The position numbers were made by a program, and so were the translations under genes. The notes beneath the pieces are model-generated. The model was not told the DNA's origin. It saw only the letters and a list, made by a program, of their open reading frames with translations, and did not search any database. A stretch of DNA of 64,000 nucleotides from Anaerolineae bacterium (GTDB taxonomy: Bacteria > Chloroflexota > Anaerolineae > Promineifilales > Promineifilaceae). Of the stretch, positions 2 to 63,800 are shown one piece after another. The DNA lies in assembly GCA_030425205.1 (NCBI GenBank), contig JAUIAP010000016.1, positions 55,956 through 119,955 on the forward strand, written 5' to 3'. How positions within the stretch are numbered: position 1 is the first letter of the stretch; every line of letters begins with the position of its first letter.

Positions 2-2185
2 GTTCCACTCCTCTGGCTCGCGTTCGCGCTCATGGTCGCCAGCGCATTACAGAAGAGTTCGACCGTTGACGAACAGAGTCATCTCTTTCGCGGCGCGGCC
101 TATCTCAAGGCAAACGCGACCCATTTCTTATTGGGGCATCCAATTGGCAACAGCGCACTCGCCGCGCTGCCCCTATTGACCGAGCCAGACCTGCAACTGC
201 CCACCGAAATTCCCGCATGGGAGACGGGAAATTGGTCGGTCGCTGGCGACTATTTTCTTTGGCGTATTGGCAACAATGCACAGCGGATCATCTTTTTGGG
301 TCGTTTGCCGATGATCTTTTGCACCTTGATTTTGGGCTGTTTTATCTTTCGCTGGGGGCGGCAACTTGGCAATATAGCGACGGGGTTGATTGCGGCCACA
401 TTGATCTTGTTCGACCCAAACATCCTCGCACATGGGCGGCTCATTTCGTCCGATGTGACGCTCACGCTGTTTTGGGCCGTGGCGGTCTATGGGTTTTGGC
501 GTTGGTCGCAGCATGGAAAGCGATCGGCCATTGTGTTGGCTGGGTTTGGCTTGGGCATGGCCAGTTTGATGAAATACAACGCGGCGTTTTTGTTGCCCAC
601 ACTAGCGATATTGGCGGGTTATGAGTGGTGGAAACGACGCACGCGCGCGCCCTTGCATGCGTTGACTGGCACAGTCGCGGTCGGCGGGTTGGTGATCTGG
701 GGGGTCAATCGCTTTGCGCTGACGCCCTTGCCCGGCGGCGCGTTTTGGGATGATCTGTTTTGGCAGATGCAGTATTTCGGCCGAAATACCGGCGGCTATC
801 TACTCGGAAACTACAATCCCGATGGCTCGCTGCTATACTTTCCGATCGCCTTCCTGATCAAAACCCCGATCCCGACCCTGCTCCTAATCGGCACGGCCAT
901 CTTATTCACCGTCAACCCATCATCCCGCGTCGCTCGTCCCCCATCCGTCGTTTATCTCCTCATCCCCGCCATGATCTTCTGCCTGACCGCCTTCACGGCT
1001 GGTTTCAACATCGGCATTCGGCACCTCTTGCCGCTCTATCCCTACCTGTATTTAGCACTTGCGCTAGCAATTTCACGTCTAAGATCGACGCAGTGGCGGA
1101 TTGCGACGACTAGCATGGTCGCGGGAACAGTATTGGTTGCTGTTTGGATCTTTCCCAACTACCTCGCCTACTTCAATCAATTGATTGGTGGACCAGAAAA
1201 TGGCTGGCGATACTTGGCCGATAGCAACGTCGATTGGGGGCAAGAGCTGCCCGCGTTGGCGCAATGGCAGCGCACACATGACGAGAAAACGCTCTATCTC
1301 AGCTACTTTGGCACAGCACACGCCGACGCATACGGCATTGAATTTGAGCCGATTCCCGCACCGATCATCACGCCCGACCCGCCGCCCACAGAACGGCAAG
1401 CGCACGACCCGCGACACCCACGACCGGGCTACTACGCCATCAGCATCAACAACTTGATCGGCTTTCCCATGCAAGATGGAGAGCGTGATATGTACGCCGC
1501 ATTTCGTGAGATGGAGCCAATCGCAAAAGTGGGCAACGCTATCTTTGTCTATGAGGTTGCGGCAACGGGTGCGCCCGTCTCTGTGGCGTTTGCTGGGACA
1601 CGGCCCGCGTTGTTGCCTGAGGCTGTCTACGCGCAATGGGGAACGAATGATGTGCGCGTGCGCTGGTTTGAAAATCCCGACGAGATGTTAGTCGTTCCGG
1701 CAGGGAATGCCGCCTACATTGTCTCCAGTCAGCCTGTTGGTGAAATCCTGCGTGAGTCTGTCGATTTGCGGGTGGAATTATCGGCCGAAAATTCCCACAT
1801 CTACGCAGTGACAGCCACACCATTCAATCAACAAACTACGCCAAAAGGGGAGACCGTTACATTCTTAGCCAGTCTACAAAACGACGCGCTTGGACACGAT
1901 CCTCTCACCGCATGGCGCGTTGAAGAGAGACTAGACGGGATGATCAAACATTTCGTACACGCGACCGACCCACAAACTGGCGAGATTCTTGCACAAGCGG
2001 ATGATGTGATGATCGATGCGTTTTCGACGCTTGAAGCGGGCGATCTCTATCTGCGACTGAGCAAGCTCAGTTTAGATGCCGATACATTCGCCGTGACAAC
2101 GGGGCTTTACGATGCGGCAACGGGCATCCGCCTTGCCGACCCTATTTTGCTCTACACAACCGAAACAATGCCGACAGAAGAGTAA
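2..2185 (+). CDS. Membrane glycosyltransferase, GT-C fold (GT39 / ArnT-PMT-like), 5' end probably outside the window
   Basis: The frame is open from base 2, with no stop before the first ATG at 32. The N-terminal half is multi-TM and carries an acidic loop motif 'DEQSHLFRGAAYL' followed by long hydrophobic segments. A soluble C-terminal domain of about 300 aa follows. This pattern matches lipid-carrier-dependent GT-C enzymes. Confidence 0.7.
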   Translation, partial: VPLLWLAFALMVASALQKSSTVDEQSHLFRGAAYLKANATHFLLGHPIGNSALAALPLLTEPDLQLPTEIPAWETGNWSVAGDYFLWRIGNNAQRIIFLGRLPMIFCTLILGCFIFRWGRQLGNIATGLIAATLILFDPNILAHGRLISSDVTLTLFWAVAVYGFWRWSQHGKRSAIVLAGFGLGMASLMKYNAAFLLPTLAILAGYEWWKRRTRAPLHALTGTVAVGGLVIWGVNRFALTPLPGGAFWDDLFWQMQYFGRNTGGYLLGNYNPDGSLLYFPIAFLIKTPIPTLLLIGTAILFTVNPSSRVARPPSVVYLLIPAMIFCLTAFTAGFNIGIRHLLPLYPYLYLALALAISRLRSTQWRIATTSMVAGTVLVAVWIFPNYLAYFNQLIGGPENGWRYLADSNVDWGQELPALAQWQRTHDEKTLYLSYFGTAHADAYGIEFEPIPAPIITPDPPPTERQAHDPRHPRPGYYAISINNLIGFPMQDGERDMYAAFREMEPIAKVGNAIFVYEVAATGAPVSVAFAGTRPALLPEAVYAQWGTNDVRVRWFENPDEMLVVPAGNAAYIVSSQPVGEILRESVDLRVELSAENSHIYAVTATPFNQQTTPKGETVTFLASLQNDALGHDPLTAWRVEERLDGMIKHFVHATDPQTGEILAQADDVMIDAFSTLEAGDLYLRLSKLSLDADTFAVTTGLYDAATGIRLADPILLYTTETMPTEE

Positions 2186-2326
2186 TAGTTTGCAAACAGT
2201 GGGCAATCGGCGGATGAGTTTCCCCTATACAATGTCGCCAACTTGCCGCGATCTGACTAAAATGTGAAGCGAAATTTCTACAAATAGAACTCCCGCAGGG
2301 GAGTTTATTTTTGCGAGGAAAGGTAA

Positions 2327-4075
2327 ATGCAACGAAGAACATTTCTGATCTTTGTGGGCATTCTGGTGTCCACACTCTCAGCTATCACGCTATTTCTCCA
2401 AACGCCTGTGTCGCAGGCCGAAAACGCCGTCTTTGCACTGGGCGCAAATGAGCGTATTAGCGTTGGGACAGACGGGATAGAAGCAAATAACGAATCGTAT
2501 CATCCATACGCATCGGCCGATGGTCGCTATATCGGCTTCATCTCGTTTGCCGACAACTTTGTGCCCGAAGCGGATGGCGTGACCAAGTGTTTGGAAGATT
2601 TTGTCTGCACTGACGTCTTTTTACGCGACCGCGTAGCCAACACGACGATTCGTCTGAGCAACAGCTTGGCGGGCAATCAAGCCAACAGCACCAGTTTCCC
2701 ACCCATTTTGACCGAAGATGGCAGCAAGGTGCTGTTTAACTCTGTCGCCGATAACATGGTGCCGGGCGACACGAACGATGACGGCGACTTCTACGGGAGC
2801 GATGGCTTTCTCTGGGAACCGGGCAAAAATCTTGTGCGCGTCACCCACAAGGCGAGCGGCGCACAGATCAAGGGTGACAGCTCTGCCTACATCACGGGCG
2901 ATGGCAATACGATGTATTTTCTCTCAAACGGCCAAGACATCGTGCCGAACGTGCTCGTCGATGCGAACGAGGTGTATAAACGCGATATAACGACGGGCGC
3001 CGTGACCCATGTGCCAATGTCATACAATGGCGAGCCAGTAGATGGCGCACATCTCGGCATTCAAACAGACCGCACGGGTCGCTACATCGTTTTCACGACT
3101 GAGGCAACAAATATCTTGCCAAACGACATCAATGGCAAAGAAGATGTCTACATCCACGACATTCAAACGGGGATTACCAAACTGGTTAGCCACACGCCAA
3201 CCGGCTTTGTCGGGAATAACCATAGCTCTGCTCCCGCTATCACGCTGGATGGCACGTTTGTTGCCTTCCGTTCCTCCGCGAGCGATCTCGTGCCAAACGA
3301 TACGAACGGTGTGGGGGACATCTTTCTCTACAACATTGCAACGGAAGAAGTGACGCGAGTTAGCGTTTCGGCCGATGGCGAACAAGGGAACGGCGAAAGC
3401 AAAGATGCGACGACTTGTGCGGGTGCAAAATTTGTCGCGTTCACATCAGAAGCGACCAATCTCACGCCCAACGCCCCCAACGGCATCCGTCAGGTCTACA
3501 TCAAACATCTCGCGTCAGGGGTCGTCGATGTCGTCTCACAAACGGAAACAGGCGTTTTGGGCAATGGAACATCGTACAAATCCTATTTCATGCCATATTG
3601 CGATGGGATTATGTTTGCGACCGACAGTAGCAATCTGATCAACAACGACGGGAATGGGGTGCGCGATCTCTACTTGCGCCCGATTATAATTTTGCCTGAT
3701 CTCTCGACATCGCAGCAGATGGGACGCGGATCGGCCGATGCGGGTGATCTTTTAACTTATACTATCCACATCGCCAATACGGGCGGTCAATCCGTCGGTT
3801 TTAACTACAGCGCGACGTTGCCTGTCAGCGTGACACACGTCAGCACAAGCGGCGCGGTCTACAATGGCACAACCAGCAGCGTCAGCGCAGCTGGCACGCT
3901 TGCGGCCGGTGGAACCCAGCAGATCACTATCGTCGTCCAGATCGACGCGGCCATCGTTGACCCGACAATCATCACGTTCAACGGACAGCTCAGCGGCGGT
4001 AGCCAACTGTTCAACTACAGCACCTCAACAATGGTGAATGGATTAGAGCTATTCTTACCCGTTATGCGACGATGA
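2327..4075 (+). CDS. Secreted PD40/TolB-like beta-propeller repeat protein with C-terminal DUF11-type repeat domain
   Basis: RBS GAGGAAAGG lies upstream of the ATG. The signal peptide is MQRRTFLIFVGILVSTLSAITLF..AEN. A repeated motif recurs (SADGRYIGFISFADNFVP, TEDGSKVLFNSVADNMVPGDTNDDGD, DRTGRYIVFTTEATNILPNDINGKEDVYIHD, LDGTFVAFRSSASDLVPNDTNGVGDIFLYN). The C-terminal 'DLLTYTIHIANTGGQSV' resembles DUF11. Confidence 0.75.
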   Translation: MQRRTFLIFVGILVSTLSAITLFLQTPVSQAENAVFALGANERISVGTDGIEANNESYHPYASADGRYIGFISFADNFVPEADGVTKCLEDFVCTDVFLRDRVANTTIRLSNSLAGNQANSTSFPPILTEDGSKVLFNSVADNMVPGDTNDDGDFYGSDGFLWEPGKNLVRVTHKASGAQIKGDSSAYITGDGNTMYFLSNGQDIVPNVLVDANEVYKRDITTGAVTHVPMSYNGEPVDGAHLGIQTDRTGRYIVFTTEATNILPNDINGKEDVYIHDIQTGITKLVSHTPTGFVGNNHSSAPAITLDGTFVAFRSSASDLVPNDTNGVGDIFLYNIATEEVTRVSVSADGEQGNGESKDATTCAGAKFVAFTSEATNLTPNAPNGIRQVYIKHLASGVVDVVSQTETGVLGNGTSYKSYFMPYCDGIMFATDSSNLINNDGNGVRDLYLRPIIILPDLSTSQQMGRGSADAGDLLTYTIHIANTGGQSVGFNYSATLPVSVTHVSTSGAVYNGTTSSVSAAGTLAAGGTQQITIVVQIDAAIVDPTIITFNGQLSGGSQLFNYSTSTMVNGLELFLPVMRR

Positions 4076-4185: not shown

Positions 4186-4256
4186 GGAGACGTGGTGCGT
4201 GGTGCGTGGTGCGCGATGAGCACAGATCACGCATTACGCACCACGCACCACACCCT
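4186..4256. repeat. Heptad-periodic hairpin repeat, family A copy 1 (GTGGTGC units)
   Basis: cgtggtgcgtggtgcgtggtgcgcgatg (4191-4218) pairs with cacgcattacgcaccacgcaccacac (4228-4253). It is intergenic, after the PD40 gene. A GC hairpin TCCCCCTC/GAGGGGGA (4091-4118) lies just upstream. Confidence 0.85.
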
Positions 4257-4315: not shown

Positions 4316-5584
4316 TTGCTAAACCGGATTGTCGCCCAACGTGATAGCCTTGCCTTCCTCATCGCCACGACATTGGCCTATGGATTGGACTATCTGTTTA
4401 ACGTCGTCAGCGGTCGCTGGCTGGGTAATGAACAGTTCGGCACGCTCGTCGCGTTGGCGGGGGTCGGACAGATTCTCGTCGTCGGCTCGCGCGTCATCCA
4501 GACTGTAACGACCCGCTACATCTCCCGTTTTCGCGCCGATACGCACGAGGAGAAGGTGCGCCCATTTATCACGGCGGCCCTGCGCGTGGGCATCTGGGGC
4601 GGGTTGGGGATCACCGTTTTATTGTGTCTGTTAGCCTTTCCATTGGCACGATTTTTGCGAATCGAGGATATGTGGGCTGTTTTTGCGCTGTTGGGCGGGG
4701 TGGGGCTGATGGTGGTTCGGCCGATTATCGGCGGAACGCTGCAAGGTCAGCAACGCTTTCTCCCGCTCGGCATCATTCAAATTATTCAGGCATCCATCCG
4801 TCTCCTAGCTGGCGCACTCTTAATTCTCGCGGGTTGGGGCGCATTTGGCGCGATGATCGCCCTGCCGATTGCCAGTCTGATTGCGCTCGTTTATGGCGCG
4901 TGGCTCCTGCGCGATCTGCTCGGCGGCACCAGCACTGTTTCCAATACCACCCCACTGCGCGAACTCGCCCACTACTCTGGCTACACGGCGGCGGGGCTGA
5001 TCGGATTCGCGCTGCTCATCAACATGGACGCCATTCTCGTCAAACGTTTCTTCGACGCGGACACGGCAGGCGTTTACGGTGCGGCCGTCACGTTGGGCAA
5101 AGTGGTGCAATTTTTTCCCGTTGCCATCATCATGGTCTTGTTTCCAAAAGCTGCCCATCGGCAGGCGACTAAACGCAACCCTGCCGCCGTTCTACCCCCT
5201 GCATTCGCCCTCATTACGGCAGTCTGTCTCGGTGTCTCGATTCTTTACTTCGCCTTTCCCGATCTACTGGTCGGCACAATCTTTGGCGACAAATTTGAGA
5301 TCAGCGGGCGGACACTTGGCACGCTTGGCCTTGCCATGTGGTTGCTTTCGCTCACAAACGTCTGGCTCAACTACTTTCTGTCGCTCAATCGCGTGCGTAT
5401 CGTCTATCTCATCTGGACGGGTGTCATCACGCAATACATCGCCTTCAACATCTGGCACGATCAGCTTTGGCATCTACCGACCGTCATGGCAATCAATGCG
5501 TTGTGGCTGACCGTTGCTGGTGCAATTCTATTTGTGCGATCAAGCAGGGAAGTCACTTCATTGCAAGAAACCCATGCACCCTAA
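4316..5584 (+). CDS. Polysaccharide/oligosaccharide flippase (Wzx/MOP superfamily)
   Basis: The 422-aa product is almost entirely TM helices. It sits in a glycan-locus context. The start is TTG, preceded by GGGGGTG. The 3' end overlaps the next gene. Confidence 0.7.
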   Translation: MLNRIVAQRDSLAFLIATTLAYGLDYLFNVVSGRWLGNEQFGTLVALAGVGQILVVGSRVIQTVTTRYISRFRADTHEEKVRPFITAALRVGIWGGLGITVLLCLLAFPLARFLRIEDMWAVFALLGGVGLMVVRPIIGGTLQGQQRFLPLGIIQIIQASIRLLAGALLILAGWGAFGAMIALPIASLIALVYGAWLLRDLLGGTSTVSNTTPLRELAHYSGYTAAGLIGFALLINMDAILVKRFFDADTAGVYGAAVTLGKVVQFFPVAIIMVLFPKAAHRQATKRNPAAVLPPAFALITAVCLGVSILYFAFPDLLVGTIFGDKFEISGRTLGTLGLAMWLLSLTNVWLNYFLSLNRVRIVYLIWTGVITQYIAFNIWHDQLWHLPTVMAINALWLTVAGAILFVRSSREVTSLQETHAP

Positions 5585-6239
5585 ATTACTCTACTTCCGC
5601 CACAAACTGTTTCGCTATCGGCAAGTTGAACAAGACATTGCCCAACGACAGACATCGCTTTTGGACATTGGTTGCGGGGATGGCGAAAATATGCTGCGCT
5701 TTCAACAGGCGTCGCTTGAAAAAGTGGGGATTGAAGTGTCGTTTAGTCGGTTACAGACTGCCCAACGGCAGGGACTGGTCGTGCAGCAAGCGAGCGGAAC
5801 GGCGTTGCCATTTGCCGATGACAGCTTCGATATGCTCTACATCGCGCATGTGTTGCACCATGTTGCTGAATTCGACACGGTGCTGCGCGAAATTGAGCGC
5901 GTGGTTGTTGAGAATGGCGTGGTCTTCGTGGTGGAAACAGTGACCGATCACCCGCTGCTGCGTCTGGCGCGTTGGTTGCATCCCGTCTGGCAAGGGGATG
6001 AGGTCGAGGCAAATTGGCGTTACAGTCAGCTTTATGAGATGCTGACCGCACATAACTTTCGCGTCGAGCGCACAGAACGCTACAATGTACTCTTCTTTCT
6101 GTGGGAGATGTTACCGCTGGCATTTTGGCCGTTTGAAATTTTCACACCGCTGTTTGTTTATCTCGACCTATTCTTCGCTCGTTTCGCTCAGCGGTATTCA
6201 GCTCACTGCTATTTTGTTTTACGACGCACAAACACATGA
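5574..6239 (+). CDS. Class I SAM-dependent methyltransferase
   Basis: Motif I is 'LLDIGCGDGENML', and 'FDMLYIAHVLHHV' is typical of Methyltransf_11. I prefer the ATG at 5574 (MHPKLLYF..) over the longest ORF start at 5514, which lies deep inside the flippase gene. The stop overlaps the next start as ATGA at 6236-6239. Confidence 0.75.
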   Translation: MHPKLLYFRHKLFRYRQVEQDIAQRQTSLLDIGCGDGENMLRFQQASLEKVGIEVSFSRLQTAQRQGLVVQQASGTALPFADDSFDMLYIAHVLHHVAEFDTVLREIERVVVENGVVFVVETVTDHPLLRLARWLHPVWQGDEVEANWRYSQLYEMLTAHNFRVERTERYNVLFFLWEMLPLAFWPFEIFTPLFVYLDLFFARFAQRYSAHCYFVLRRTNT

Positions 6240-7915
6240 CCAAAATTGTACTCATTGCGCTGGATGGCGCGACATTGGATTTACTAAAACCGTGGATGGA
6301 CGCGGGTGAACTACCATTGCTGGCGCAAATCTTCGCAGAAGGTGCAGGCGGCACGCTCAACAGCACCATCCCATGGGCAACGCCAACCGCATTTGCATCG
6401 CTGGCAACCGGCACAAATCCGGGCAAACACGGCGTCTACGACTTTGGGACGCTGATTGGCGATGACTATACGGCGTTTGTGCCAACCAGTGGCGGAGATG
6501 TGCACGGTCGAACGTTGTGGGAACGGCTGTCCGACGCGGGGATCAGCTCGGCCGTCATCAACATGCCCATGACCTATCCCGCCCCAGCCATCGAAGGCAG
6601 TGTCATCGCGGGAATTCCCTACCCCAGCGGCAGCCCACAACTCTGTCATCCCCCTCATTTGCTAGATCGCCTTCAGCAAGAAGGCTGGGATTTGGCGCGC
6701 AATGCGTCTGATGATTTGGGCGGTAGTTATGCGGCGTATCTTGACGGACTGCTCGACCTTGTGCGCGTGCGGGGTGAGGCCACGGCGTGGTTGATCGCGC
6801 AAGATAATCCTGACTTTGTCGCCGTCCATTTTTTGGAAACAGATCAGGCACAACATCGCTTCTGGCAATTCATGGCGGGCGAGCCACGCTATGAACATGG
6901 CGGCGAATATACCGATGCGATTTTGCGCGTTTTCCAGCAAACGGAGTCGGCGATGCAGCAGATTATCAACGCAGCGGGGGAAGACGCGCTGATCTGTGTC
7001 ATGTCGGATCATGGATTTGGCGCCACCCGTCATCAAGTTTGGCTCAACAATTGGCTGTTGCAGAATGACTTTCTCGCGCTCAAGTCAAACATGGGCGTGC
7101 GTGTCAAACAACTGCTCTATCGGGCGGGATTGTCGCCAGCGGCGATTCGGGAGATGGCTCCCGAGCGACTCAAATTGGCGATCTTGCAGTTTTTTGAACA
7201 ACAAAAGGGGCGTGCGCTGGCGAGTCAGACGGAAGGGGGGGATGCGCCCGTCAAGCGCAAAGGGGTGATGGACTGGCTGACAGAACGCTTGGCAATCGAT
7301 TTTTATGATGTCGATTGGGCGCGGACAGTCGCATTTTCGACGGGGACAACGGCGGTGGGATATGTCTATTTGAACGTCGCTGGGCGCGATCCGCAGGGGG
7401 TGGTGAGCAGTCAGCAATATGCTGTGAAGAGGCAGCAGATTGCCGAAAAGTTGCGCGATTGGGAAGCGGTTGGGGAAGTGCTTTTGCGGGAAGAGGTGTG
7501 GAAGGGTTCGCAGTTGGAGCTTGCGCCCGATTTGGTGATTCGATGGGCAGCGGACACGACGGATGCACGTTATTTCCAGACGCGCTTTAGTAGTCATCAT
7601 CTGATGAAAGCGGTGCCAAATGATTATGCAAGCCATCGGCCGAATGGTCTGTTCGCCTTTTATGGCAACGGGGTCAAAACGGGAATGCTCAACGCTGAAC
7701 TGGTCGATTTGACGGCGACGCTGTTGTGGCTGTTCAAACAGCCTGTGCCGAGCGTGCTGGATGGACGGGTGTTGACCGACTGTTTTGTGGCCGAGCGCGC
7801 AGTTTTGGTTGTGGAAGAGGCGGAAGATTCGGCCGAAAAAAGCACAGGCGGATTTTCGGCCGATGATGACGCCTCTCTCAAAGAGGCGTTGCGGCGACTA
7901 GGCTATTTAGAGTAG
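6236..7915 (+). CDS. Alkaline-phosphatase superfamily enzyme (type I phosphodiesterase / nucleotide pyrophosphatase-like)
   Basis: The N-terminus reads 'IVLIALDGATLDLL' and 'IPWATPTAFASLATGTNPGKHGVYDF', a metal-ligand Asp plus a Thr-nucleophile motif of the NPP type. 'VMSDHGF' provides a distal metal site. Confidence 0.75.
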   Translation: MTKIVLIALDGATLDLLKPWMDAGELPLLAQIFAEGAGGTLNSTIPWATPTAFASLATGTNPGKHGVYDFGTLIGDDYTAFVPTSGGDVHGRTLWERLSDAGISSAVINMPMTYPAPAIEGSVIAGIPYPSGSPQLCHPPHLLDRLQQEGWDLARNASDDLGGSYAAYLDGLLDLVRVRGEATAWLIAQDNPDFVAVHFLETDQAQHRFWQFMAGEPRYEHGGEYTDAILRVFQQTESAMQQIINAAGEDALICVMSDHGFGATRHQVWLNNWLLQNDFLALKSNMGVRVKQLLYRAGLSPAAIREMAPERLKLAILQFFEQQKGRALASQTEGGDAPVKRKGVMDWLTERLAIDFYDVDWARTVAFSTGTTAVGYVYLNVAGRDPQGVVSSQQYAVKRQQIAEKLRDWEAVGEVLLREEVWKGSQLELAPDLVIRWAADTTDARYFQTRFSSHHLMKAVPNDYASHRPNGLFAFYGNGVKTGMLNAELVDLTATLLWLFKQPVPSVLDGRVLTDCFVAERAVLVVEEAEDSAEKSTGGFSADDDASLKEALRRLGYLE

Positions 7916-7918: not shown

Positions 7919-9868
7919 ATGCCCCAGCTCACCATTATCATCCCCACGATGAACGAAGCGGACAATATCGTGCCGCTCGTCACACGTTTGGCAGCCGCTG
8001 TTGCAGAGATCGACGCAGAGATTTTATTTGTCGATGATAGCAGCGATAAAACGCCCGACGTGATCGCAAGCGTGGCGGCAACGGCGGCGTTGCCTGTGCG
8101 CTGTATACATCGGCCGAAATCGCAACGGGACGGACTAAGTGGGGCGGTCGTTGTGGGGTTACGCGCCAGCACGGGTGATTATGTCTGCGTGATGGATGGG
8201 GATTTACAGCATCCGCCGAACGTCGTGCCGATTTTGCTGGAGCGAGCGGTGTTGAGTTCGGCCGATATTGTCGTCGCCAGCCGCCAGGCAAACCGCATTG
8301 GCCCCGTCGGGTTGCCACTGCCGCGCGCGCTCATCTCAAACACGCTCACCTTAATTGCGCGCTCCTGCTTCCCGCGCTCGCTCAAAGATGTTTCCGACCC
8401 GTTGACCGGCTTTTTCCTCGTGCGGCGGGCGGCCTTAGATATCGATCGCCTGCATCCCGACGGCTTCAAAATCCTGCTCGAAATTTTGGTGCGCCATCCC
8501 GATTTACGGGCGGGCGAACTGCTGTTTGACTTTGCGCTGCGTCATGCGGGCAGCAGCAAGGCAGATTTTCGCGAGGGGATGCGTTTCTTCCGCCATGTTT
8601 TGCGCCTGCGCACCACCGTTCACACCCGCCCGTTGTTGCGGTATGTGAGCGTCGTTTTTGCAGCCGCAATGGTCAAAGTGTTGGCGTTGTCGTTTTTGGC
8701 GCGGCGTAATTGGCGGCAAATCGTCGCTGTCTTTAGCGGTGCAATGGTTGGCGACTTTGTGGGTTGGGTTGGCAACCGAACCGTCGTTTTCCCCGATGAA
8801 AAATGGCGCACATTGCGGCGATTTTTGCGCGCCAGCACGCTCTTTAATGCGCTGGTATTTACCCCTGTCTTCGCCCTATTGCAGCGCATTCCCGCGCTGC
8901 GAACACGCCGACAAATCTCGGCGGCCCTGTCGATTGGCATCACGGGCTTTGTGCGCTATCTACTATCCGATCGCTGGATTGGCGCGAGTGGCTTGATGTC
9001 AGCCGAAGCGGTCAAAACGACCTATAGCATCCACGATAAGCTCGTCATTCAATCGCCTGTGCCGCTGCCCGATCTCGCCTACTTCCAGAGTGCGGCGCGC
9101 GAAATGACGGCCGACATCGTAATTCGCGTGGATCGGCATGGGACGCCGCGCAAGTTCGAGGATGGCGTTAGTTTTGATGACGGCATCGGCCGATTTGGGT
9201 TCGCATTCACCATCACCCCCGCAAAACAGATCGAAGTCGTTATTTCGCCCATTATCGCGCAGGCGCCACACGTTTTGTATGTCAACATCGTCGAGCCACT
9301 GTTGCGATACGCGGCGTTGCGCAAGGGGTTTGTCTTTGTTCAAGCTGGCGCGTACACGGATGGGCATGGTGCAGTTCTGGTGAGCAAGTCGGGGCGCAAC
9401 GCATCGGCGGCGGCGACGTTTGAGATATTGGGCAAGAATCCAGCAGCGCGTTATTTGGCCCATGATTCTGTGTTAATTGCGGCCGATGGGACGGTCTTTG
9501 CCTTTCCACATGCGCTGACAACGACGAAACTGCTCGAATCATCATGGCAGCGACGGCTGGGCGCATGGATGCGAAAACGACGCTCCTTGCCCGCGGCGAC
9601 GTTTAACGCCTATGTGCAGCGACTCTTTCCCCCGCTCCAGACGCCTGTCGAACAGGTCGCAACAATCGTTTCGTCCGCGCCACTCGTTGGGTATGCAGGG
9701 GCAGAAAACGACGCGGCCACCATTGCAAAAACAGTGCTACAAAATTCGGCCGATCCGCTCGGTTTCCCGCTCTTTTCGATGCTCGCCGACTACGAAGCCA
9801 CCGTGAACGATCACGACTTAGTTGCGGCAGAATGCGAACGATTAACACTTGCCTTGCAAAAGGCATAA
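7919..9868 (+). CDS. Polyprenol-phosphate glycosyltransferase (GT2, DPM1-like) fused to a GtrA-like TM module and an unassigned C-terminal domain of about 290 aa
   Basis: GT2 motifs are 'IIIPTMNEADNI', 'VDDSSDKTPD' and 'MDGDLQHPP'. Four hydrophobic helices (aa about 235-350) resemble GtrA. I cannot assign the C-terminal part (nt about 8996-9868). Confidence 0.7.
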   Translation: MPQLTIIIPTMNEADNIVPLVTRLAAAVAEIDAEILFVDDSSDKTPDVIASVAATAALPVRCIHRPKSQRDGLSGAVVVGLRASTGDYVCVMDGDLQHPPNVVPILLERAVLSSADIVVASRQANRIGPVGLPLPRALISNTLTLIARSCFPRSLKDVSDPLTGFFLVRRAALDIDRLHPDGFKILLEILVRHPDLRAGELLFDFALRHAGSSKADFREGMRFFRHVLRLRTTVHTRPLLRYVSVVFAAAMVKVLALSFLARRNWRQIVAVFSGAMVGDFVGWVGNRTVVFPDEKWRTLRRFLRASTLFNALVFTPVFALLQRIPALRTRRQISAALSIGITGFVRYLLSDRWIGASGLMSAEAVKTTYSIHDKLVIQSPVPLPDLAYFQSAAREMTADIVIRVDRHGTPRKFEDGVSFDDGIGRFGFAFTITPAKQIEVVISPIIAQAPHVLYVNIVEPLLRYAALRKGFVFVQAGAYTDGHGAVLVSKSGRNASAAATFEILGKNPAARYLAHDSVLIAADGTVFAFPHALTTTKLLESSWQRRLGAWMRKRRSLPAATFNAYVQRLFPPLQTPVEQVATIVSSAPLVGYAGAENDAATIAKTVLQNSADPLGFPLFSMLADYEATVNDHDLVAAECERLTLALQKA

Positions 9869-12938: not shown

Positions 12939-12940
12939 TA

Positions 12941-16946: not shown

Positions 16947-16971
16947 GACGGTATGGAGCAGTAACAAGATC

Positions 16972-20733: not shown

Positions 20734-20746
20734 ATCGAGACACGAA

Positions 20747-49194: not shown

Positions 49195-49202
49195 GCCCTA
49201 AG

Positions 49203-54465: not shown

Positions 54466-54570
54466 GTCACGTAGTTTTCGCCACTTGATAAGTCGTGGTG
54501 CGTGGTGCGTACTCTGGACACGCACTACGCACCACGTACCACTCACCTAAGTGGCGCAAACCTAAAGACC
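54466..54570. repeat. Heptad-periodic hairpin repeat, family A copy 4
   Basis: The core is cgtggtgcgtggtgcgt (54494-54510) paired with acgcactacgcaccacgtaccac (54520-54542). The outer arms TGTCACGTAGTTTTCGCCACTTGATAAG / CCTAAGTGGCGCAAACCTAAAGAC are complementary. The left flank matches copy 2 (TGTCACG-AGTTTTCGC). Confidence 0.85.
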
Positions 54571-55851: not shown

Positions 55852-56026
55852 TTTAAACTCTCCTTTATCGTGCTGAATTTTCGGCCGATTATAACACGAT
55901 CTTCTACATCCTCCCCCACCTTAACATAGCCAAAACAAACCATTGAAAAATCGATAACATGCCCAATCGTGGCACGATTGGGCGGGTTAAACATGCTGCG
56001 AGAACGCATCAAAATGTGCGTTTTCC

Positions 56027-56554
56027 ATGTGCCAAGTTGCCAATTATGAAGCCCCGCTCGCTCAACTGATGAACGCCCTAAAGATGTCTATGCGCTCTGA
56101 ACAAGCTACAATCCCCTCCATGAGTCGAGTTATCAACACGAACAACCCTAACAAATTACGCAACAAAAATCGCCGTCTGATCGCTGAACTGCTGCGCCGA
56201 ATGAGCAGCAAACCAGAGGTCGACGCGGAAGTACGCGACATGGCTGCCGCCGTTGTGCTGGCATTGCGCGAGATTGACGATGGACTAACCGTCACGATGG
56301 CCGCTTGGGAAAAGCGCGGCTATTGGATGAAAGCGGAGAAGTTTTATCAGGAATGGTCATGGACAAAAGAGTCCGCCGCTAATTTAGATGATGTGATTCG
56401 GCACGAGGCATGGGATTTACTGCCCAATCTACTGCTTGACCTATTCCCGCGCTTTGCCGACGTACAGATTGCCAAATACACACGTAAAGAAGATGCGTGG
56501 AAAGGCAAGCACGCCGAATTGATGGAGATGGAGCCGATGGCGTTGCCCTATTGA
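56027..56554 (+). CDS. Hypothetical protein (175 aa; start uncertain)
   Basis: This clean ORF has protein-like composition and no competing gene. I recognise no motif. Confidence 0.4.
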   Translation: MCQVANYEAPLAQLMNALKMSMRSEQATIPSMSRVINTNNPNKLRNKNRRLIAELLRRMSSKPEVDAEVRDMAAAVVLALREIDDGLTVTMAAWEKRGYWMKAEKFYQEWSWTKESAANLDDVIRHEAWDLLPNLLLDLFPRFADVQIAKYTRKEDAWKGKHAELMEMEPMALPY

Positions 56555-56611: not shown

Positions 56612-57634
56612 TTGTCTTCTAATTCAAGATACAGACCATATTGGCTCATGCTGCTTGTCGCCCTGCATTGGGGCTGGCTAATTGGATGCAATTCAGCACC
56701 GCTGCCAACCCCAACAGCAACAGTGGTCAAGCCGCCACCCGCGACGATGAAGCCCACTGTGACCGCTGTCATTTCGGCACCATTACCCAGCGAGCATCCC
56801 AGTTTGTCATCGCTCATTCCCACACCACAACCAAGCGCGACGCCAACCAGCACGCCTGATCCATTCACAAAAATCGTCACTGCGCTGCCGCCCACGCCCA
56901 CACAGTCCCCCTGTGCAACAACTGGCACAACGACAGCAGCCAGCTATACCAGCACCATTGAAGGCCCCACCCGCACCTATCGCATCTATCTACCCCCATG
57001 CTATGCAGCAGAAACGCGCACATACCCAACGCTCTACATGCTACATGGCAATCTCTATGGCGAGGAAGAGTGGGACAACATTGGCATCGACGATGAGGCG
57101 GATGCGCTAACATTGGCTGGGGAGGTTGCGCCAATGATTATCGTCATGCCAGAGGGTCGTCGCGTTAGTGACAACACGAGTGGTGGTGATTTTTCATATG
57201 AGGCGGTGCTGGTCAACGAGCTTATTCCGCATGTCGATGCGCTCTATCGTACCAATGGCGAGCGGGCGATTGGCGGACTGTCACGTGGCGGATACTGGGC
57301 AGCGGAGGTTGCCTTTCGCCATCCAGATCTATTTAGCGCGGTTGGATTACACGCGCCGGTCTTTTTGGACACAGGCGATGATCGGGCGATCAATCCATTG
57401 TGGACGGTCGAATCGGCCGAAATCAACACCCTCTGCATCGCCTTCGACTTTGGTTCAGAAGATTTCTATATCAGCACCGCACAACCGATCCGTGACGCGC
57501 TGCTCACCCGCCAAATTCCCCATAACTGGACGATCTACCCCGACGGCAGCCACGCCTACCCATACTGGTCAGAACATCGTGCCGACTATGTCCGTTGGTA
57601 TGCGCAACGATGGCAGCGGCAAAGGTGCGACTAA
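56612..57634 (+). CDS. Lipoprotein esterase (alpha/beta hydrolase, 'putative esterase' family)
   Basis: The TTG start gives a leader 'MSSNSRYRPYWLMLLVALHWGWLIGC' containing a lipobox. A Pro/Thr-rich linker follows. 'YPTLYMLHGNLYGEEEW' and 'GGLSRGGYWA' (a GxSxG variant) are present. Confidence 0.7.
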   Translation: MSSNSRYRPYWLMLLVALHWGWLIGCNSAPLPTPTATVVKPPPATMKPTVTAVISAPLPSEHPSLSSLIPTPQPSATPTSTPDPFTKIVTALPPTPTQSPCATTGTTTAASYTSTIEGPTRTYRIYLPPCYAAETRTYPTLYMLHGNLYGEEEWDNIGIDDEADALTLAGEVAPMIIVMPEGRRVSDNTSGGDFSYEAVLVNELIPHVDALYRTNGERAIGGLSRGGYWAAEVAFRHPDLFSAVGLHAPVFLDTGDDRAINPLWTVESAEINTLCIAFDFGSEDFYISTAQPIRDALLTRQIPHNWTIYPDGSHAYPYWSEHRADYVRWYAQRWQRQRCD

Positions 57635-57833: not shown

Positions 57834-60800
57834 TCAGGCGACTTTCGAGCGCAACCGACGAACCAAGAGCCCAATCGTGGATACGCAGAACAATAACATG
57901 AGCAGACTCAGGCTGTTGGGCGCGATGACGGTTACCGTGCGCAACATGACGGCGGTGGGAAGCGTTCCCGTGCGCTCGAATGCGCCCATGTCATACAAGC
58001 CAGCGCGGGCGGCATCTTGGGGGCGTATCGCGTTGTCGAGATCGTTCGGCAAGCCTGTCGCGCACTGGTCAACGGCTGGCGAGGCGGCGGCAAGGCGATA
58101 GTTACCCCGTCCCGTCACCTCAAACTGTGGATCGACACTGATGTTGTCCGTCCCAGCAAGCGGGCTGCCCTGCGTCAAGTTGCAGTTGGCGTTAAGCACT
58201 GCGCTCCCGTGCAAGCCAATGTTGATCGAGTTGCCCCAGACGATGTTGTTGCTTAAATTGACGGTCGTATTGTTATTGGCGTAAAGTGGCTGACCATTGG
58301 GGTTGTCGGCAATCGTCGCATGTTTACCGGTGAAGGTGCCATTATCAACCTCAACGACCGAACGGTTATGTGTGCCCGTGAGCAGTGCATTGTACAGTTC
58401 AATGTCGGCCGCATTGGTTTGATAGAGTGCGCTGCCAAAGCTGGCGTTGCCCGCCGTATTGTCGCGCAAGGCGACACCACGCAACTGGGCGGCACTGTCG
58501 TTAAAGTAGAACGCCCCGCCGTGTGAATCGGCCGAATTTCCCACCAACTCATTGCAATACTGATTCGCATTGAGCGCAAGCACATTGCACGCCAACCCGC
58601 CACCGCCGTAGAGCGGTTCGAGCGTCAAATCGCTGCTCGCAAACAATGCGGCAAATCCACCCTCCCCATCGGCATGATTCGACTCACCGATCACGTTGAC
58701 CAAACTCACGGTCGACGAATTAGCGGCAAAGATTGCGCCGCCGTCCCCATCCGTCTCGTTTTCTGTGATGCGCGTCCCCGTCAGTGCAACGGTCGCATTG
58801 ACCGTAGCGTAGACACCTCCGCCCGCTGAATCGGCCGAATTGTCGAGCAGCACACCCCCGTTGGCGCGCAGCGAACTATTCGGCCCAGAGACAAATGCAC
58901 CGCCACCAAACGCCGCGCTGTTGGCTGGGCAAACGATGAAATCACACTGGTTGCCCAGCGTTGCACTGTCGTTTAGTTCGGCAACCGCGCCGTTGGTCAG
59001 ATAGATGCCGCCGCCATTGTCGTTGGCGTGACTATTGGCGATGCGGCTATTGCCAAACAGCGCGATCCGACCGCCATCCACATACGCCCCGCCACCGCTC
59101 GTCGCGCTCTGGTTATCGCCAAAGAGAATTGCCGAGCCGACATAGCTATCGGTGAGCGTTACGGTGCCAGCGGGGGCAATGGCGATGCCGGCACCCCCAT
59201 CACCTACGTCTGTCCCTGTGGTGCTGCTGCCATAAATGGTGCTACCGTTGCGCAATTCGGCCGATCCCGCAAAGACGCGCAAGCCACCACCGTTATCACT
59301 CGCAACCCCGTCGATTAGGGCCACATTGTCGAGAATCAACGTGCTGTTTCCACTCACGTAGGCGATCCCGCCCCAACGCGCGCGCGCATTTTGCAGGCGC
59401 ATATTTTGCAACGTGACCGTCGCCCCATTGCTGACTTCAACCACGCCGCCCTGCGTCGCAAACGCATTGTCGCGATCAATTTCTGCATAGTCGATGGCGC
59501 GATTAGCCGCAGCCGTGCAGTCGCCGTTGCCACTGGTTAGCGTCAAATCTTTTTCAATGTCGCCCATGTGCTCGTTGTAATAGCCTGTCTGAATGTAGAT
59601 GGTGTCACCAGCAGATGCAGCCGTAATCGCGTCCACGATGGTGCCATAGGCACACGTTGCACCGTTGATGCCGACAAAGTGATGGAGTTCATCTGCACCC
59701 GCGTCATAGTCGCCCGCGTTGACCTCTTCGCAGTTATAGCAAACAAAGCTGAAATGTTGATCGGTCGTATCGCCGTTGTAGTAGTAGGCATCGCCGCCCA
59801 GCGTGGGGGCATAGATGCGGATGGCATATTCGCCTGCCACGGGGTTTTCAATCCAAACGTTTTCAACGGGATTATGAATGTCGTTGAAATTATCCCCAAC
59901 CGCGCTCCAGCCATCGTTGCCAAACTTATTGCCAACCCAGATATTGCCGTTCGGGTCGGTCACGCGCAATTTGAGATCGTTTACGAGCGGGTTGAGCGCG
60001 CCCGGTGCGCCCGGTGCGTCGGACCATGCCAGCGACAGGCGCAGCGGTTCGCCCGTGTCGCTGACCGTCACAACGAGGTCATAGAACTGCCCAATATCAG
60101 TCAGCAGAACCGGGTTTTCATAAAATAGGATGGGCACGGGCGGGTTGAGTAGACGGTCGATGTTGACACGCCCCCAGCCTTGATGCGGATTCGGCCGATT
60201 GCCCATCACGTTGTTCCAGCCATCCAATCCACCGCCGAGATCATCGGTCGTTGCGATCAACGCCGCCTTGACCGTTGCGGGTTCAGGATTGGCATTGTTG
60301 CCATTCCGCACATACCACTGTTGCGTAAACAATGCGGCCGCGCCAGCAACGTGGGGCGAAGCCATGCTCGTGCCGTTGCAAAAGGCGTGCTGCGTTGTGC
60401 CAGCAGGGGATGTGGCACACGATTCGTTGATCGCGCCATCGCGGTTCTCAGTGCTGACGATGCGGTTGCCCGGCGCAACGACATCAGGTTGAATCAGACT
60501 CGACACGGCCAAGTTGACGGCTGGGCCACGACTGCTAAAAAAGGTGATGTCGTTGGGACTATCGTTTGTGCCACCAAACGTGTCGGAGCGTTCACTGTCG
60601 TGGCTGCCGACGTTGACGATATTTTTTGCCTCTTTCGGTTCTGTGATGGAGTCGAGACAGGGGCCGGGACCACAATCATCGCCCGCATTGCCGGCCGCAA
60701 AGATGGTCAGGAACGGATTACGTCCGCCGCCCGTCAATGCATCGAGGGTCGCGTCATCTTGATTGGCCGCGAGCTGTGTATAACCCGCTCCCGCTGGCCC

Positions 60801-63800
60801 TGCGTTCCATGAATTGTTGCTCAAATCGGCATTTGCGGCGGCACTGGCAACCCGTTCCGCCATCGTCACGCGCATCTGCACCCACGCGGACGAGATGAGT
60901 AGACCCTGATCTGTGCCGTTGGCGTTTGAGCTGAATGTGAAACGGATGCGGAAGTTATTGACGTAGTAAGTCGTTGGAATTGACCAGCTGCGCAGTTGAT
61001 ACTGTCCGCCACTGTTTCCACCACAAACAGTGCGCGCGGTTGCCCAACTCGTGCCGCCATTGTTGCTGACCTGCACAGAAAAACAGTCGTTCGCATCGGC
61101 AAGGCTGAAAAACTCTCCCCAAAATAGCTGTGGCGTGACGGGGCTGGCCGCCGTGTAACTGCTCATGTCGATCAGTGGGGACGTGATACGACTCGACTCA
61201 TTGTTGTTATAGTTGCCAAAGCCGCCCGTTCCCCACGCGCCGTCACCCCCGCCTGACACATTCCATGACCACGAGCTGTTTGTGCCAGCCGCAACGTAGC
61301 CACCATTGTTGTTGGTTAAATCATCCAAATAAGGATAGGTCGCATCAGAAGAGATTGCGTCCATCGCGTGCAGGCCAGCACCGGGAGCCATGCCTTGACC
61401 GTAGAGGAAGCCATCAGAATCGGTCGAGCCGCTCCCCCCATTCCCCGCGACAATGCCCGCCACGTGCGTGCCATGTCCAGAGCCGTTCACTTGTGGATTG
61501 CTGCCGCCGTCCGTACCGGGTTCATTCGGCTCTGTGTAGGCGCCATACTCCGTGCCTGAGACGACATTGAGTTCAGGATGATCCCAGTCGACACCCGTGT
61601 CAACAATAGCGACCGTTACACCCGTGCCGTCGTAACCTGTGTCGTCGAGCCAATCTTGATACCCTGTGACGACGTTGCCGCTCCCGTCAAAGTTGCTGGC
61701 GACGATTTGATTGGTGCGTTCGTCCGCCAACGTGTCGGGATAGAGTCGGTCGAGGTTGATCAGTTGTGGTATGGCTTGCAGTTGGGCAAGTTGCGCGGGT
61801 GTGGTCCACAGCTCCCAGACGACCATGCGCCCGCGCTCCCCCATCACGTGCCGCTCAGTGGTGCTGATGCGTCCCGTCATTGCGGGCAGGTTGCCGTCAT
61901 CCCAAAGCAGGGCTGTGACCATCAGTGGCGTTGCGGCCGAACTGCGCCCAGCTTCACTTGTCAGGCGTTGGGTTGTGCGGAAATCGGCCGAAAATGGCGC
62001 AATCACACGCACGTGCGCCGATTGTTCGCGTCGCGCCAACCGCTCCGCATCTGCCCATACGAGATAGGTGTGATTTTGATAGTATTGAATCGGCGTGCCA
62101 ATCTTTTGGACCTCTTCAAATAGCTGTTCCGTCAGCGGAGAGCGCATTTGAACGAGATAGAGTCCCTCACCCGCCTTTGTCAATGCCTCATGACTACGCG
62201 AACTGTCCTGCAAGTCTAGCGTCATGTCATCGAGTCCGAACAACCCATAACCCAACTCTTGCGTAAACGGAATCCCGCTCATTTGCAATTGGGCAAACTG
62301 GGTGCTGGTCAGCTCAAGCCAGAGAAAGCTGCCATAGTCGAGCGCGCGCACGCTGTTGTCAAGCAGCGGTTGGACATCCTCAATCGCCGACCACGCAACC
62401 CGTGCAGCATGGGTGGCGCGATCCAACATAGCGCGGCTAGCTGGGTCAGATTGATCGAGGTTGCGGCGTGTGTCGAGGGGGCGCAATTGATAGTCGATGT
62501 CGCGGGCGAAGCCACTGTTGCAGTGGTCGCGGGCGGGAGATTGACGGGTGATGTGGTAGTTGCCGTTGCCCACAAAAAGTGGGTCTGCGACGATGTTACC
62601 ACCGCCCACATACGGCTCTGACAAGACCGAGCAGCTAATCATCACCTCGCCATCATCTGTGACAAGTGCGCCAGCATTGCCCCAGACAATGCTGGACGTC
62701 ATCTCTAGCGCAGCTCGCGCTGCAACAGAAAATGCGGCAGTGCTGTTACCCGTGTTGCCTGCAATGGTGACATTGTTCAGCGTCGCCTTTGCGCCATACC
62801 CATCGCTGCCCGAGTTAAGGATACTTATGGTGGAGAAACTGCCGTCATTGTCAGCGATAATGACACTGTCGAGATTGATGTAGGTATTGGCGCGTGCAGC
62901 AAAAATTGCCGCGCCCGACCCAGCCGACTGGTTATTCTCAACATAGACGCTTTCTAAATCGAGATCCGCCCCCAACCATGCGTAGACAGCCCCGCCTGCA
63001 CCAGCCGTTGTCACATTGTCGCTAATTTGAGCACATTTGACGGTACTGCATGGGAAAAGTGTCGTGTGGTCAAAATCGACAAGCGTCCCATCACCGACAG
63101 CGTAAACGCCTGCGCCGCCAATCGCCGCCCGATTGCGCAGGAGAGAGGCGTTATCACCATAAACGTCGGCGCCAGAACTCAAATAGAGTCCCCCACCGTA
63201 CTCCTCGGCCACATTATCATAGACATTCACACCGCTGCCTTGTAGTTCAATTCGGCTGTCGTTTGTGGCATAGATACCTGCGCCAGTGCGGGCGGTGTTG
63301 TAGGCGATGCTGTTGTATTCACCCGCCCCTGAGACGAGGGTTAAGTCGCAGTTGTCGAGATAGAAGCCGCCACCGCTACCAACATTGGAGTTATCGTTGT
63401 CGGCCACATTTGGGCGCGGATCGATAATGCCAGCAAACAAAACGGCTAAGCCGACCCCACTACCCGTATCGAGATCAATCGTGCCATCGACACAAAAAAT
63501 GCCGCCGCCGTGTGTATCGGCCGTATTACTTTGCACAAAACTATTGTCTGAGAGGGTCAACGTGCCGCCGTCAAGATGGATGCCACCGCCATAGCTCGAA
63601 TCGTTGTCAGTAACAATCACGCTTTCGAGCGTGACGGATGCATCGGCGTTAATTTCAATCCCACCACCATAGTCGGCATCATCTTGTCCTCCTGTAATGA
63701 CGAGTTTGTTCAGCAAAACGGTCGTGCCGCTTTCATAAATTTCTAGGACAGAATCGGCCGAATTTCCCGCCAGCGTCGTTGTGGAGCCACCAAACGAAAC

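Follow-up and report, generated by a model that had tools for sequence, protein, structure and literature searches.

The contig JAUIAP010000016.1 of an Anaerolineae bacterium (Chloroflexota; assembly GCA_030425205.1) raises the question of why one short palindrome, TCGGCCGA, should be so abundant in a 64-kb stretch of DNA (positions 55,956 to 119,955 of the contig, here called the window; 54% G+C). The original prediction, made by a model from the letters alone, had noted about 78 copies where it guessed that one or two would be expected, and had likened the octamer to HIP1, the highly iterated palindrome (HIP) of cyanobacteria. We find exactly 78 copies, spanning 777-63761, at the coordinates that the prediction had listed, with a mean spacing of 818 bp and a density of 1219 copies per Mb. 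Dinucleotide-preserving shuffles of the window yield a mean of 1.63 copies (maximum 6) and Markov models of orders 0-3 predict 1.3-2.9, an excess of 27-60-fold over low-order Markov or shuffle expectation, in line with the guess. Markov models of orders 5-6 come near the observed count, because the 6- and 7-mers on which they draw themselves consist almost wholly of the motif. Indeed, TCGGCCGA is the top palindromic octamer of the window, and the octamers of higher count all overlap it. Window 19330-24272 (4.9 kb), with six motif copies, is matched at 100% identity by an independent Logan contig (L149), and the motif is therefore no assembly artefact; a PurA query retrieved two near-identical Logan contigs, whereas a glycosyltransferase of the window had no entry in the assembly index. 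The hyperabundance of TCGGCCGA in the window is confirmed.

Could the encoded proteins account for this excess? We took as genes the greedy longest open reading frames (ORFs), and the assignments of copies to ORFs rest on these calls. Longest ORFs contain 77 of the 78 copies (76-77, counting doubt over the copy at 28001), in genes of either orientation and in all three codon phases: 45 copies (58%) read TCG-GCC-GAx (S-A-D/E), 17 read xTC-GGC-CGA ([IFV]-G-R) and 15 read xxT-CGG-CCG-Axx (R-P-[INKT]). The examples that the original prediction had quoted for each phase are correct, and so is its claim that coding, with genes of both orientations affected, is unable to explain the excess; when synonymous codons were shuffled within genes, 5.1±2.1 copies remained (maximum 12 in 300 shuffles), compared with the 77 in ORFs. 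The proteins permit the octamer at 98 places without any change of residue, and 77, about four fifths, carry it; the unused synonymous places are mostly several base changes away from the octamer. These results show that the motif has been driven to near saturation of the positions allowed by the proteins.

The motif has also left its mark on the proteins. Amino-acid composition predicts 13 occurrences of the tripeptide S-A-[DE] in the window; there are 52, of which the octamer encodes 45, while A-S-[DE], T-A-[DE] and S-A-[NQ] are all at expectation. In RecJ, each of the three sites departs from the residues that most of 120 homologues have (SLGPK replaced by SIGRK, LTAES by ISAET and PTPVF by HRPIF). 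In lepA (14987-16834(-)), the most conserved gene of the window, there are zero synonymous opportunities and zero octamers, and none of its three CGGCCG cores has the T...A flanks; in the lepA of a related locus, L001, a full site arose in a variable loop, as S-A-D where relatives show D-P-E, N-T-D or other residues. These observations show that the motif acts at the DNA level and has forced amino-acid replacements.

Spacers had been predicted to be saturated in the same way as genes, which proved wrong: the window holds merely one or two intergenic copies. The copy at 55881 is the sole clearly intergenic one, as predicted; that at 28001, also predicted to be intergenic, is only probably so, as it falls in the longest ORF 27092-28177(-), within what is probably a 5' over-extension. 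In the pooled loci, non-coding copies number 3 where 12 are expected and 12 where 24.6 are expected, a comparison that longest-ORF calls and the lower G+C of spacers blur. The non-coding density is thus 2-4-fold below the coding density, a magnitude expected from the lower G+C of spacers.

We then asked what the unit of this abundance is. The bases immediately outside the octamer (-1/+1) are A or T (W) in 150 of 156 half-sites (96%), which sharpens an A/T bias of the flanks noted in the original prediction; at -2/+2 about 70% are A or T, and among the window copies there is no conservation farther out. The unit is therefore a decamer, W-TCGGCCGA-W, rather than a fragment of a longer repeat, a source that the prediction had named as one that would overturn it. 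Among the 117 CGGCCG cores of the window, 78 have both flanks T...A, 27 have one matching flank and 12 have neither, where independent half-sites would give 71.5, 40 and 5.6, respectively. Cores with both flanks or neither are in excess, and thus the palindrome, not the half-site, is the unit. Dyad symmetry does not extend past the decamer, as the ±1 bases of the two half-sites pair as if independent (22/13/37 versus 21.6/14.8/35.8). One-off variants had been described as frequent. This holds for the outer positions, where variants differing solely at position 1 or 8 are 4-6-fold enriched (GCGGCCGA, 9 copies; TCGGCCGT, 8; ACGGCCGA, 4; TCGGCCGC, 4), and fails for core-breaking variants, which are at or under expectation. 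Copies are also spaced more regularly than random in the window (variance/mean 0.36-0.61 in 2-4-kb bins); this evenness was not replicated in 14 related loci (pooled variance/mean ~1).

To what extent is the motif shared by related genomes? By LepA and RecJ, the closest relatives of the window are uncultured Ardenticatenaceae/Promineifilaceae (Chloroflexota, Anaerolineae). The nearest genome, the metagenome-assembled genome (MAG) GCA_964389925.1, has 94% (LepA) and 92% (RecJ) amino-acid identity and ~80% nucleotide identity. TCGGCCGA occurs once per 0.8-1.4 kb in L001, L151 (GCA_964389925.1), L002, L275 (GCA_049614105.1) and L152 (a JGI contig). Other members of the LepA clade of the window carry the same CGGCCG core with lineage-specific flanks, the forms found across related genomes being TCGGCCGA, AACGGCCGTT, CACGGCCGTG and CGCGGCCGCG: the AACGGCCGTT dialect is found in L003-5, L008, L014, L273 and L274, NACGGCCGTN with a CA bias in L009-11 and L013, and CGCGGCCGCG in L012. 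The highest density seen, 118 cores in 21.8 kb, is that of L007 (Ca. Hadersleviella danica; 1-21833), where half-site flanks are mixed and asymmetric (CA 55, CT 23, TT 21, AG 21). L007 may have only one specified half-site, or a change of dialect may be under way; it is a Nanopore-derived MAG, in which systematic basecalling errors at a methylated motif may play a part.

Each dialect has its own tripeptide imprint. Only the two A-flank groups have T-A-V in excess (47 and 77 occurrences, ~10 expected), [YHND]-G-R is raised only in the A lineages, S-A-[DE] only in the T lineage, and A-A-A (34 versus 6.4 expected) only in L012. As each dialect shows its own imprint and not those of the others, a peptide-level cause is ruled out; a single amino-acid motif, which the prediction had recognized as fatal to its reading, is equally at odds with the three codon phases. 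The data show that the CGGCCG core is invariant across one Ardenticatenaceae/Promineifilaceae clade, and that its flanks differ there as dialects.

Orthologous genes, whose comparison the prediction had proposed, keep these sites beyond background. Although synonymous divergence between species is close to saturation (third-codon-position identity 53-71%), sites were retained in 3/3, 2/3, 4/5 and 1/2 cases in the T lineage (10/13 pairwise; background octamers 0.16-0.26) and in 8/11, 15/17 and 6/7 cases in the A lineage (29/35 pairwise; background octamers 0.25-0.35), in a small sample of pairs that are not independent. In pairwise comparisons, the octamer is almost always kept wherever the amino acids are kept. 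The motif is thus shown to be retained between species. Between dialect lineages we found no shared site position in LepA or GlgC and one case in RecJ. At this one position the core is kept while flank and residue switch together: T-TCGGCCGA with TCG (Ser) in the T lineage and ACGGCCGA with ACG (Thr) in the A lineage.

The core is a typical restriction site, and we also looked at its restriction-modification (R-M) context. No palindromic hexamer but CGGCCG is strongly enriched in the window, where 15 of the 64 palindromic hexamers have an observed/expected ratio (O/E) below 0.15. CCCGGG, CTCGAG, CTGCAG and TCCGGA are missing altogether where 11-17 copies are expected; AGCGCT occurs once, CCGCGG twice and GCATGC 5 times against 46 expected, and the O/E of CCGG is 0.28. 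GGCC outside CGGCCG is halved (137 versus 287-319 expected). Related MAGs have similar, though not identical, lists of avoided palindromic hexamers. CGGCCG is thus not an avoided R-M target in the window, where it is enriched; its avoidance holds in sister clades. Of 45 loci from more distant Anaerolineae, each with an expectation of at least 5 copies, 10 have a CGGCCG O/E below 0.2, nine of them with zero copies and one with 4 against 29.4 expected. No or almost no CGGCCG (0-4 versus 5-29 expected) is found in L018, L020, L022, L025, L029-L035, L038, L039, L043, L048, L063 and L073; L035 and L039 are also purged of GGCC, with 1 copy against 110 and 66 expected, respectively. On the LepA tree, the purged loci cluster in lineages outside the hyperabundant clade. 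That neighbouring lineages either purge or amplify the hexamer is as expected if CGGCCG-specific R-M systems are old residents of the class. Judged by such counts, CGGCCG behaves as a putative R-M target in the class Anaerolineae, and the pattern implies probable EagI-like and HaeIII-like restriction pressure across it. The suggestion of the original prediction that the core is an R-M target thereby gains indirect support from the complete purge in sister lineages.

The original prediction had noted that a 1.3-kb insertion sequence (IS) has none of the motif. This IS, of the ISAzo13 family (49198-50526(-), 1329 bp), is bounded by terminal inverted repeats of 34 nt (88% complementary) and contains a transposase ORF (49212-50327(-)). 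It indeed has zero copies and sits in the largest motif-free gap of the window (49033-52482), though this is not significant by itself (P about 0.2). Together, the IS and the transposase genes of L273 and L274 hold 1 site against 5.1 expected, and transposase segments occupy the largest motif-free gap in all three loci. Pooled over the three, the depletion of the motif in mobile segments is suggestive. A scan of viral contigs for paired motif copies returned chance matches only. In L272 (IMG/VR; 40-1191), the sole octamer-rich viral contig, 11 copies of TCGGCCGA stand at multiples of 33 bp in one ORF; these belong to a coding tandem repeat unrelated to the genome-wide motif.

The above results show a motif that is neither a mobile repeat nor a coding by-product, and they support the central reading of the original prediction, namely a HIP1-like palindrome beyond coding constraint. 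HIP1 is over-represented 15-300-fold (PMC5861425), occurs at 300-2700 copies per Mb (PMC4390886) and contains recognition sites of two orphan methyltransferases (PMC4390886; PMC5861425); the excess of 27-60-fold and the density of the present motif lie within the HIP1 ranges. TCGGCCGA thus has in common with such elements an excess of at least 15-fold at hundreds to thousands of copies per Mb, independence of frame and orientation with no codon or peptide cause, the standing of most over-represented word as an extended palindromic octamer, and conservation between related genomes above background. It differs in its host, its LepA and RecJ relatives being Chloroflexota, whereas HIP elements have so far been described from cyanobacteria.

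How could such an element arise? In the explanation that we favour, W-TCGGCCGA-W would be an element of the HIP type, a hyperabundant site recognized by a dimeric reader particular to the lineage, most likely a CGGCCG methyltransferase; we give this an even chance of being right. The motif would be read by a homodimeric, sequence-specific DNA reader whose flank specificity drifted between lineages, and this reader would most likely be a CGGCCG (EagI-type) DNA methyltransferase descended from an R-M system. The sites would arise and persist through a directional process coupled to the reader, and this process may be methylation-coupled biased repair or gene conversion, selection for what the methylated site does, or the two together. 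Insertion sequences and other recently arrived DNA would still be without the motif.

Several points weigh against this explanation. We found no cytosine DNA methyltransferase, Vsr or restriction endonuclease in the window (Pfam, 39 ORFs), and none by sequence-motif search in ~290 kb of CGGCCG-rich related loci; the methyltransferase motif searches covered C5 and N4/N6 types in all loci. The only DNA methyltransferase seen in the related loci is a Dam-like (PF02086) adenine enzyme of the closest MAG (L151 17605-19571(-), together with an unannotated 277-residue neighbour, 6 kb from recJ), which is not obviously tied to CGGCCG. Neither this gene nor its neighbour has a match in NCBIfam, and the window shows no avoidance of GATC (O/E 1.14). 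A C5 methyltransferase of L090 was discarded as a candidate, as its genome does not avoid CGGCCG. No transition-specific depletion, the signature of very-short-patch repair, was seen among near-cognate sites. In addition, methylation itself is not readable from sequence; any strong ongoing drive would also give retention at conserved amino acids, which leaves selection and drive unseparated; and the analogy with HIP1 would bring no proven mechanism. Elhai explains HIP sites by mismatch repair directed by G-m5C (m5C, 5-methylcytosine), a ratchet model (PMC4390886); it predicts a G flank, which fits the L012 dialect only, and not T or A.

In the strongest rival, the motif would mark DNA as self for uptake or homologous recombination, in the manner of the DNA uptake sequences (DUS) of Neisseria and the uptake signal sequences (USS) of Pasteurellaceae or of Chi, and would spread by molecular drive, with the dialects acting as lineage barriers and methylation perhaps, perhaps not, entering into recognition. 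We regard this as possible, though doubtful. Among hyperabundant short words, only for DUS and USS is the mechanism established; they lie in genes at ~1 per kb and bias proteome tripeptides (PMC2817400), and DUS form lineage dialects round a conserved core (PMC3630211). The present motif likewise is hyperabundant, has dialects and a proteome imprint, and is depleted in transposase segments. The abundance of HIP1 varies together with proteins that carry a Type IV secretion system annotation and have been read as uptake machinery (bioRxiv 10.64898/2026.06.24.733823), and recent transformation data for HIP1 are compatible with such a role. Near recJ in related loci there are a ComEA-like gene (SLBB and HHH domains) and PilC-like T2SSF genes (L275 6710-7366, L273 20202-21725, L274 21536-21935). 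ComEA and PilC homologues, however, are widespread and prove nothing; they are compatible with uptake and are no evidence for it. To our knowledge, natural competence is not documented for Ardenticatenales. Known uptake sequences are, moreover, non-palindromic and work in one orientation, while the motif is a perfect palindrome, and a self-signal would leave unexplained a restriction-type core that sister clades purge.

A second rival takes the motif as the site of an abundant nucleoid-associated or chromosome-organizing dimeric protein, selected for architecture, a function reportedly proposed for HIP1 by Xu, Lawrence and Durand. The positively correlated half-sites of the palindrome, the conservation of sites between species and the even spacing in the window would all suit such a protein, as would the periodicity of HIP1 reported at 10-90 kb (PMC5861425). 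Yet the evenness is confined to the window, which at 64 kb is too short for periods of 10-90 kb, and neither the restriction-type core nor the sister-clade purge is accounted for. We consider this rival unlikely.

About as unlikely, in our view, is a functionless by-product of biased repair, that is, a one-way ratchet of very-short-patch or methyl-directed mismatch repair near methylated CGGCCG, as in the model of Elhai for HIP sequences. This model predicts the enrichment of one-off variants at outer positions only, and near-saturated synonymous opportunities are what a persistent drive would produce. Against it stand the replacements fixed in conserved enzymes such as RecJ, the lack of transition-specific depletion and, for the G-m5C version, the T and A flanks. 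It overlaps with the methyltransferase-reader explanation that we favour, from which it differs only in denying a function. Finally, a coding cause (peptide motif, codon or codon-pair bias) or descent from a longer repeat, for which the 58% of copies encoding S-A-D/E might speak, has practically no chance of being right and is already refuted by the three phases in genes of both orientations, the synonymous shuffles, an enriched tripeptide that follows the dialect (S-A-[DE], T-A-V or A-A-A) and flanks unconserved past ±2, the octamer-rich viral contig being an unrelated case.

The copies themselves, all exact matches to TCGGCCGA and strandless as palindromes, are distributed as follows, with phase and residues given according to the longest ORF (S-A-D and S-A-E correspond to phase 0, residues ending in G-R to phase 1 and those with R-P to phase 2). 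ORF 2-2185(+) has copies at 777-784 (F-G-R) and 1781-1788 (S-A-E), and ORF 2327-4075(+) at 2513-2520, 3368-3375 and 3731-3738 (all S-A-D). They are followed by 4717-4724 (V-R-P-I) in ORF 4316-5584(+); 7636-7643 (H-R-P-N), 7829-7836 (S-A-E) and 7856-7863 (S-A-D) in 6236-7915(+); 8110-8117 (H-R-P-K), 8258-8265 (S-A-D), 9186-9193 (I-G-R) and 9746-9753 (S-A-D) in 7919-9868(+); 10064-10071 (I-G-R) and 10808-10815 (F-G-R) in 10003-10902(+); 12291-12298 (F-G-R) in 11315-12448(+); 14391-14398 (V-G-R) and 14522-14529 (S-A-E) in 12881-14647(+); and 14815-14822 (I-G-R) in 14650-15000(-). A LacI-family ORF (16945-18021(+)) carries 17115-17122 (Y-R-P-N), which is kept in L001, and 17394-17401 (F-R-P-I), where L001 has TTGGCCAG. 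Next come 18340-18347 (S-A-D), 18683-18690 (A-R-P-I) and 18913-18920 (S-A-E) in ORF 17991-19241(-); 19581-19588 (I-G-R) and 20050-20057 (S-A-D) in 19440-20570(-); 21448-21455 (I-R-P-K) in 20747-21814(+); and 22476-22483 (S-A-E) in 21780-22850(+).

The PurA ORF (22915-24243(+)) has two copies, 24052-24059 and 24136-24143 (both S-A-E); this PurA homologue is unusually divergent, its best relatives in JGI metagenomes being 55-57% identical, compared with 92-94% for LepA and RecJ. The three RecJ copies (ORF 24342-26057(-)) are 24581-24588 (H-R-P-I; family majority P-T-P-V), kept in L151 and lost in L152; 25198-25205 (S-A-E), kept in L151, L152 and L275, with ACGGCCGA (T-A-E) in the A-flank lineage; and 25512-25519 (I-G-R; family majority L-G-P), kept in L151 and L152. 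ORF 27092-28177(-) includes 27453-27460 and 27549-27556 (both S-A-D) as well as 28001-28008, which is probably intergenic, between divergent genes and upstream of lpd (ATG at 28107); the Lpd ORF (28087-29499(+)) has 28336-28343 (S-A-D). Further copies are 30333-30340 (L-R-P-I) in ORF 29833-31242(+); 31262-31269 (F-R-P-K) in 31242-32759(+); 32849-32856 and 33629-33636 (both S-A-E) in 32762-33691(+); 34078-34085 (F-G-R) and 34595-34602 (S-A-E) in 33721-35058(-); 35284-35291 and 36352-36359 (both S-A-E) and 36704-36711 (I-G-R) in 35245-36882(+); and 37687-37694 and 37924-37931 (both F-G-R) in 36927-38351(+).

Nine copies fall in ORF 38405-44551(-): 38441-38448 (F-G-R), 38976-38983 (S-A-D), 39381-39388 and 40380-40387 (both S-A-E), 41335-41342 (N-R-P-N), 41739-41746 (S-A-E), 42546-42553 (S-A-D), 43059-43066 (S-A-E) and 43533-43540 (S-A-D). 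ORF 44889-48413(-) contributes 45148-45155, 47557-47564 and 48286-48293 (all S-A-D) and 47851-47858 (S-A-E), and ORF 48526-49194(-) contributes 48710-48717 (S-A-D), 48965-48972 (S-A-E) and 49033-49040 (F-G-R). Beyond the IS lie 52482-52489 (F-R-P-N) and 52557-52564 (D-R-P-T) in ORF 50596-52641(+); 53419-53426 (V-G-R), 53480-53487 and 53573-53580 (both S-A-E) in 52795-54336(-); 55014-55021 (N-R-P-I) in the GlgC ORF 54595-55851(-), where L012 has ATCACCCAAT (D-H-P-I); the intergenic 55881-55888, between 54595-55851(-) and 56027-56554(+); and 57413-57420 (S-A-E) in 56612-57634(+). The last ORF, 57834-63980(-), holds 58528-58535 and 58831-58838 (both S-A-D), 59257-59264 (S-A-E), 60191-60198 (N-R-P-N), and 61984-61991 and 63754-63761 (both S-A-D). 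The ORFs 38405-44551(-) and 57834-63980(-) have exactly 2048 residues each, apparently by coincidence; one of the two is a bacterial alpha-2-macroglobulin-like protein and the other an S8 subtilase-domain protein, and by domain content they are unrelated.

A separate family of intergenic hairpins, in which heptad repeats (GTGGTGC)n face (GCACCAC)n, resembles repetitive extragenic palindromic (REP) elements or terminators. It is found at 4190-4250, 24255-24305, 26150-26215, 52700-52745 and 54490-54535, with predicted RNA folding energies of -26 to -55 kcal/mol, and accounts for a second group of over-represented octamers (ACGCACCA and related words).

We found no earlier description of the motif, or of any HIP-like element in Chloroflexota, in the open-access and bioRxiv literature. 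HIP1 has stood unexplained for three decades and has been treated as a cyanobacterial peculiarity; the motif adds an independent second case, built on another core, and with it new comparisons, in the form of a clean radiation of flank dialects within one family and of sister clades that purge the same hexamer. It can now be asked which genes are common to HIP-bearing cyanobacteria and CGGCCG-bearing Ardenticatenales and absent from motif-free relatives, and which protein has specificity residues that change together with the T, A and G flanks. Tentatively, and expecting that it may well fail, we propose that HIP-type saturation began independently in a second phylum from an R-M hexamer purged by sister lineages, and that the dialects might be a family-wide, methylation-based self-recognition code gating repair, uptake or recombination between filamentous Chloroflexota lineages. 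If this is true, features common to Ardenticatenales and cyanobacteria would point to the long-sought HIP machinery. The motif also illustrates how a 10-bp DNA word shapes proteins, with tripeptides enriched about four- to eight-fold and conserved enzymes bearing replacements that create the word. In practice, motif density is usable as a marker for binning such MAGs and for spotting recently acquired DNA, and EagI or NotI digestion and methylation-aware basecalling will act unusually on motif-rich genomes.

How does the motif compare with known systems? Its core hexamer is the site of EagI and Eco52I (CGGCCG), and the L012 dialect is the site of NotI (GCGGCCGC); the purge of CGGCCG in many sister Anaerolineae is what an active restriction target would show. 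Restriction targets are normally avoided, whereas here the site is amplified 30-60-fold, with no cognate genes seen. REP elements and miniature inverted-repeat transposable elements (MITEs) are likewise abundant palindromic DNA. They are, however, extragenic, 20-300 bp long (at least 20 bp), conserved in their interior and spread by transposition, whereas the motif is 10 bp long, with 76-77 of 78 copies in ORFs and no conserved flanks, and is thus no member of these families. In Escherichia coli, Dcm and Vsr act on CCWGG, a methyltransferase site made commoner by biased repair of T:G mismatches, an effect reportedly described by Bhagwat and McClelland in 1992; it is modest rather than tens-fold, and leaves a transition-specific depletion of near-cognate sites that is absent for the motif. 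DUS and USS resemble the motif in lying mostly in genes at ~1 per kb, in tripeptide bias, in dialects and in depletion from recently acquired DNA, and differ from it in being asymmetric, orientation-dependent and read by a competence receptor.

The closest likeness is to HIP1 (GCGATCGC), of which cyanobacteria have the variants TCGATCGA, GGGATCCC, CAGGCCTG, GGCGCC and rCCGGy. Both are palindromic octamers with a CG-rich, restriction-type core of 6 bp and a palindromic extension to 10 nt; both are in tens-fold excess, in genes and in all codon phases; in both, one-off variants are mainly at positions 1 and 8, sites are conserved, and lineages swap flanks and keep the core. HIP1 belongs to cyanobacteria and is built on CGATCG/GATC, whereas the motif belongs to Chloroflexota (Anaerolineae) and is built on CGGCCG. 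One-mismatch HIP1 sites are reported to be enriched and conserved, in contrast to the core-breaking one-off sites of the motif, which are not enriched. Also unlike HIP1, the motif appears 2-4-fold poorer in spacers than in genes, its T, A and G flank dialects do not fit the G-m5C model as a set, and sister lineages purge CGGCCG completely. By analogy, the motif would thus repeat the HIP1 phenomenon in a different phylum and on a different core, with well-resolved dialects and a purge of the same hexamer in sister clades.

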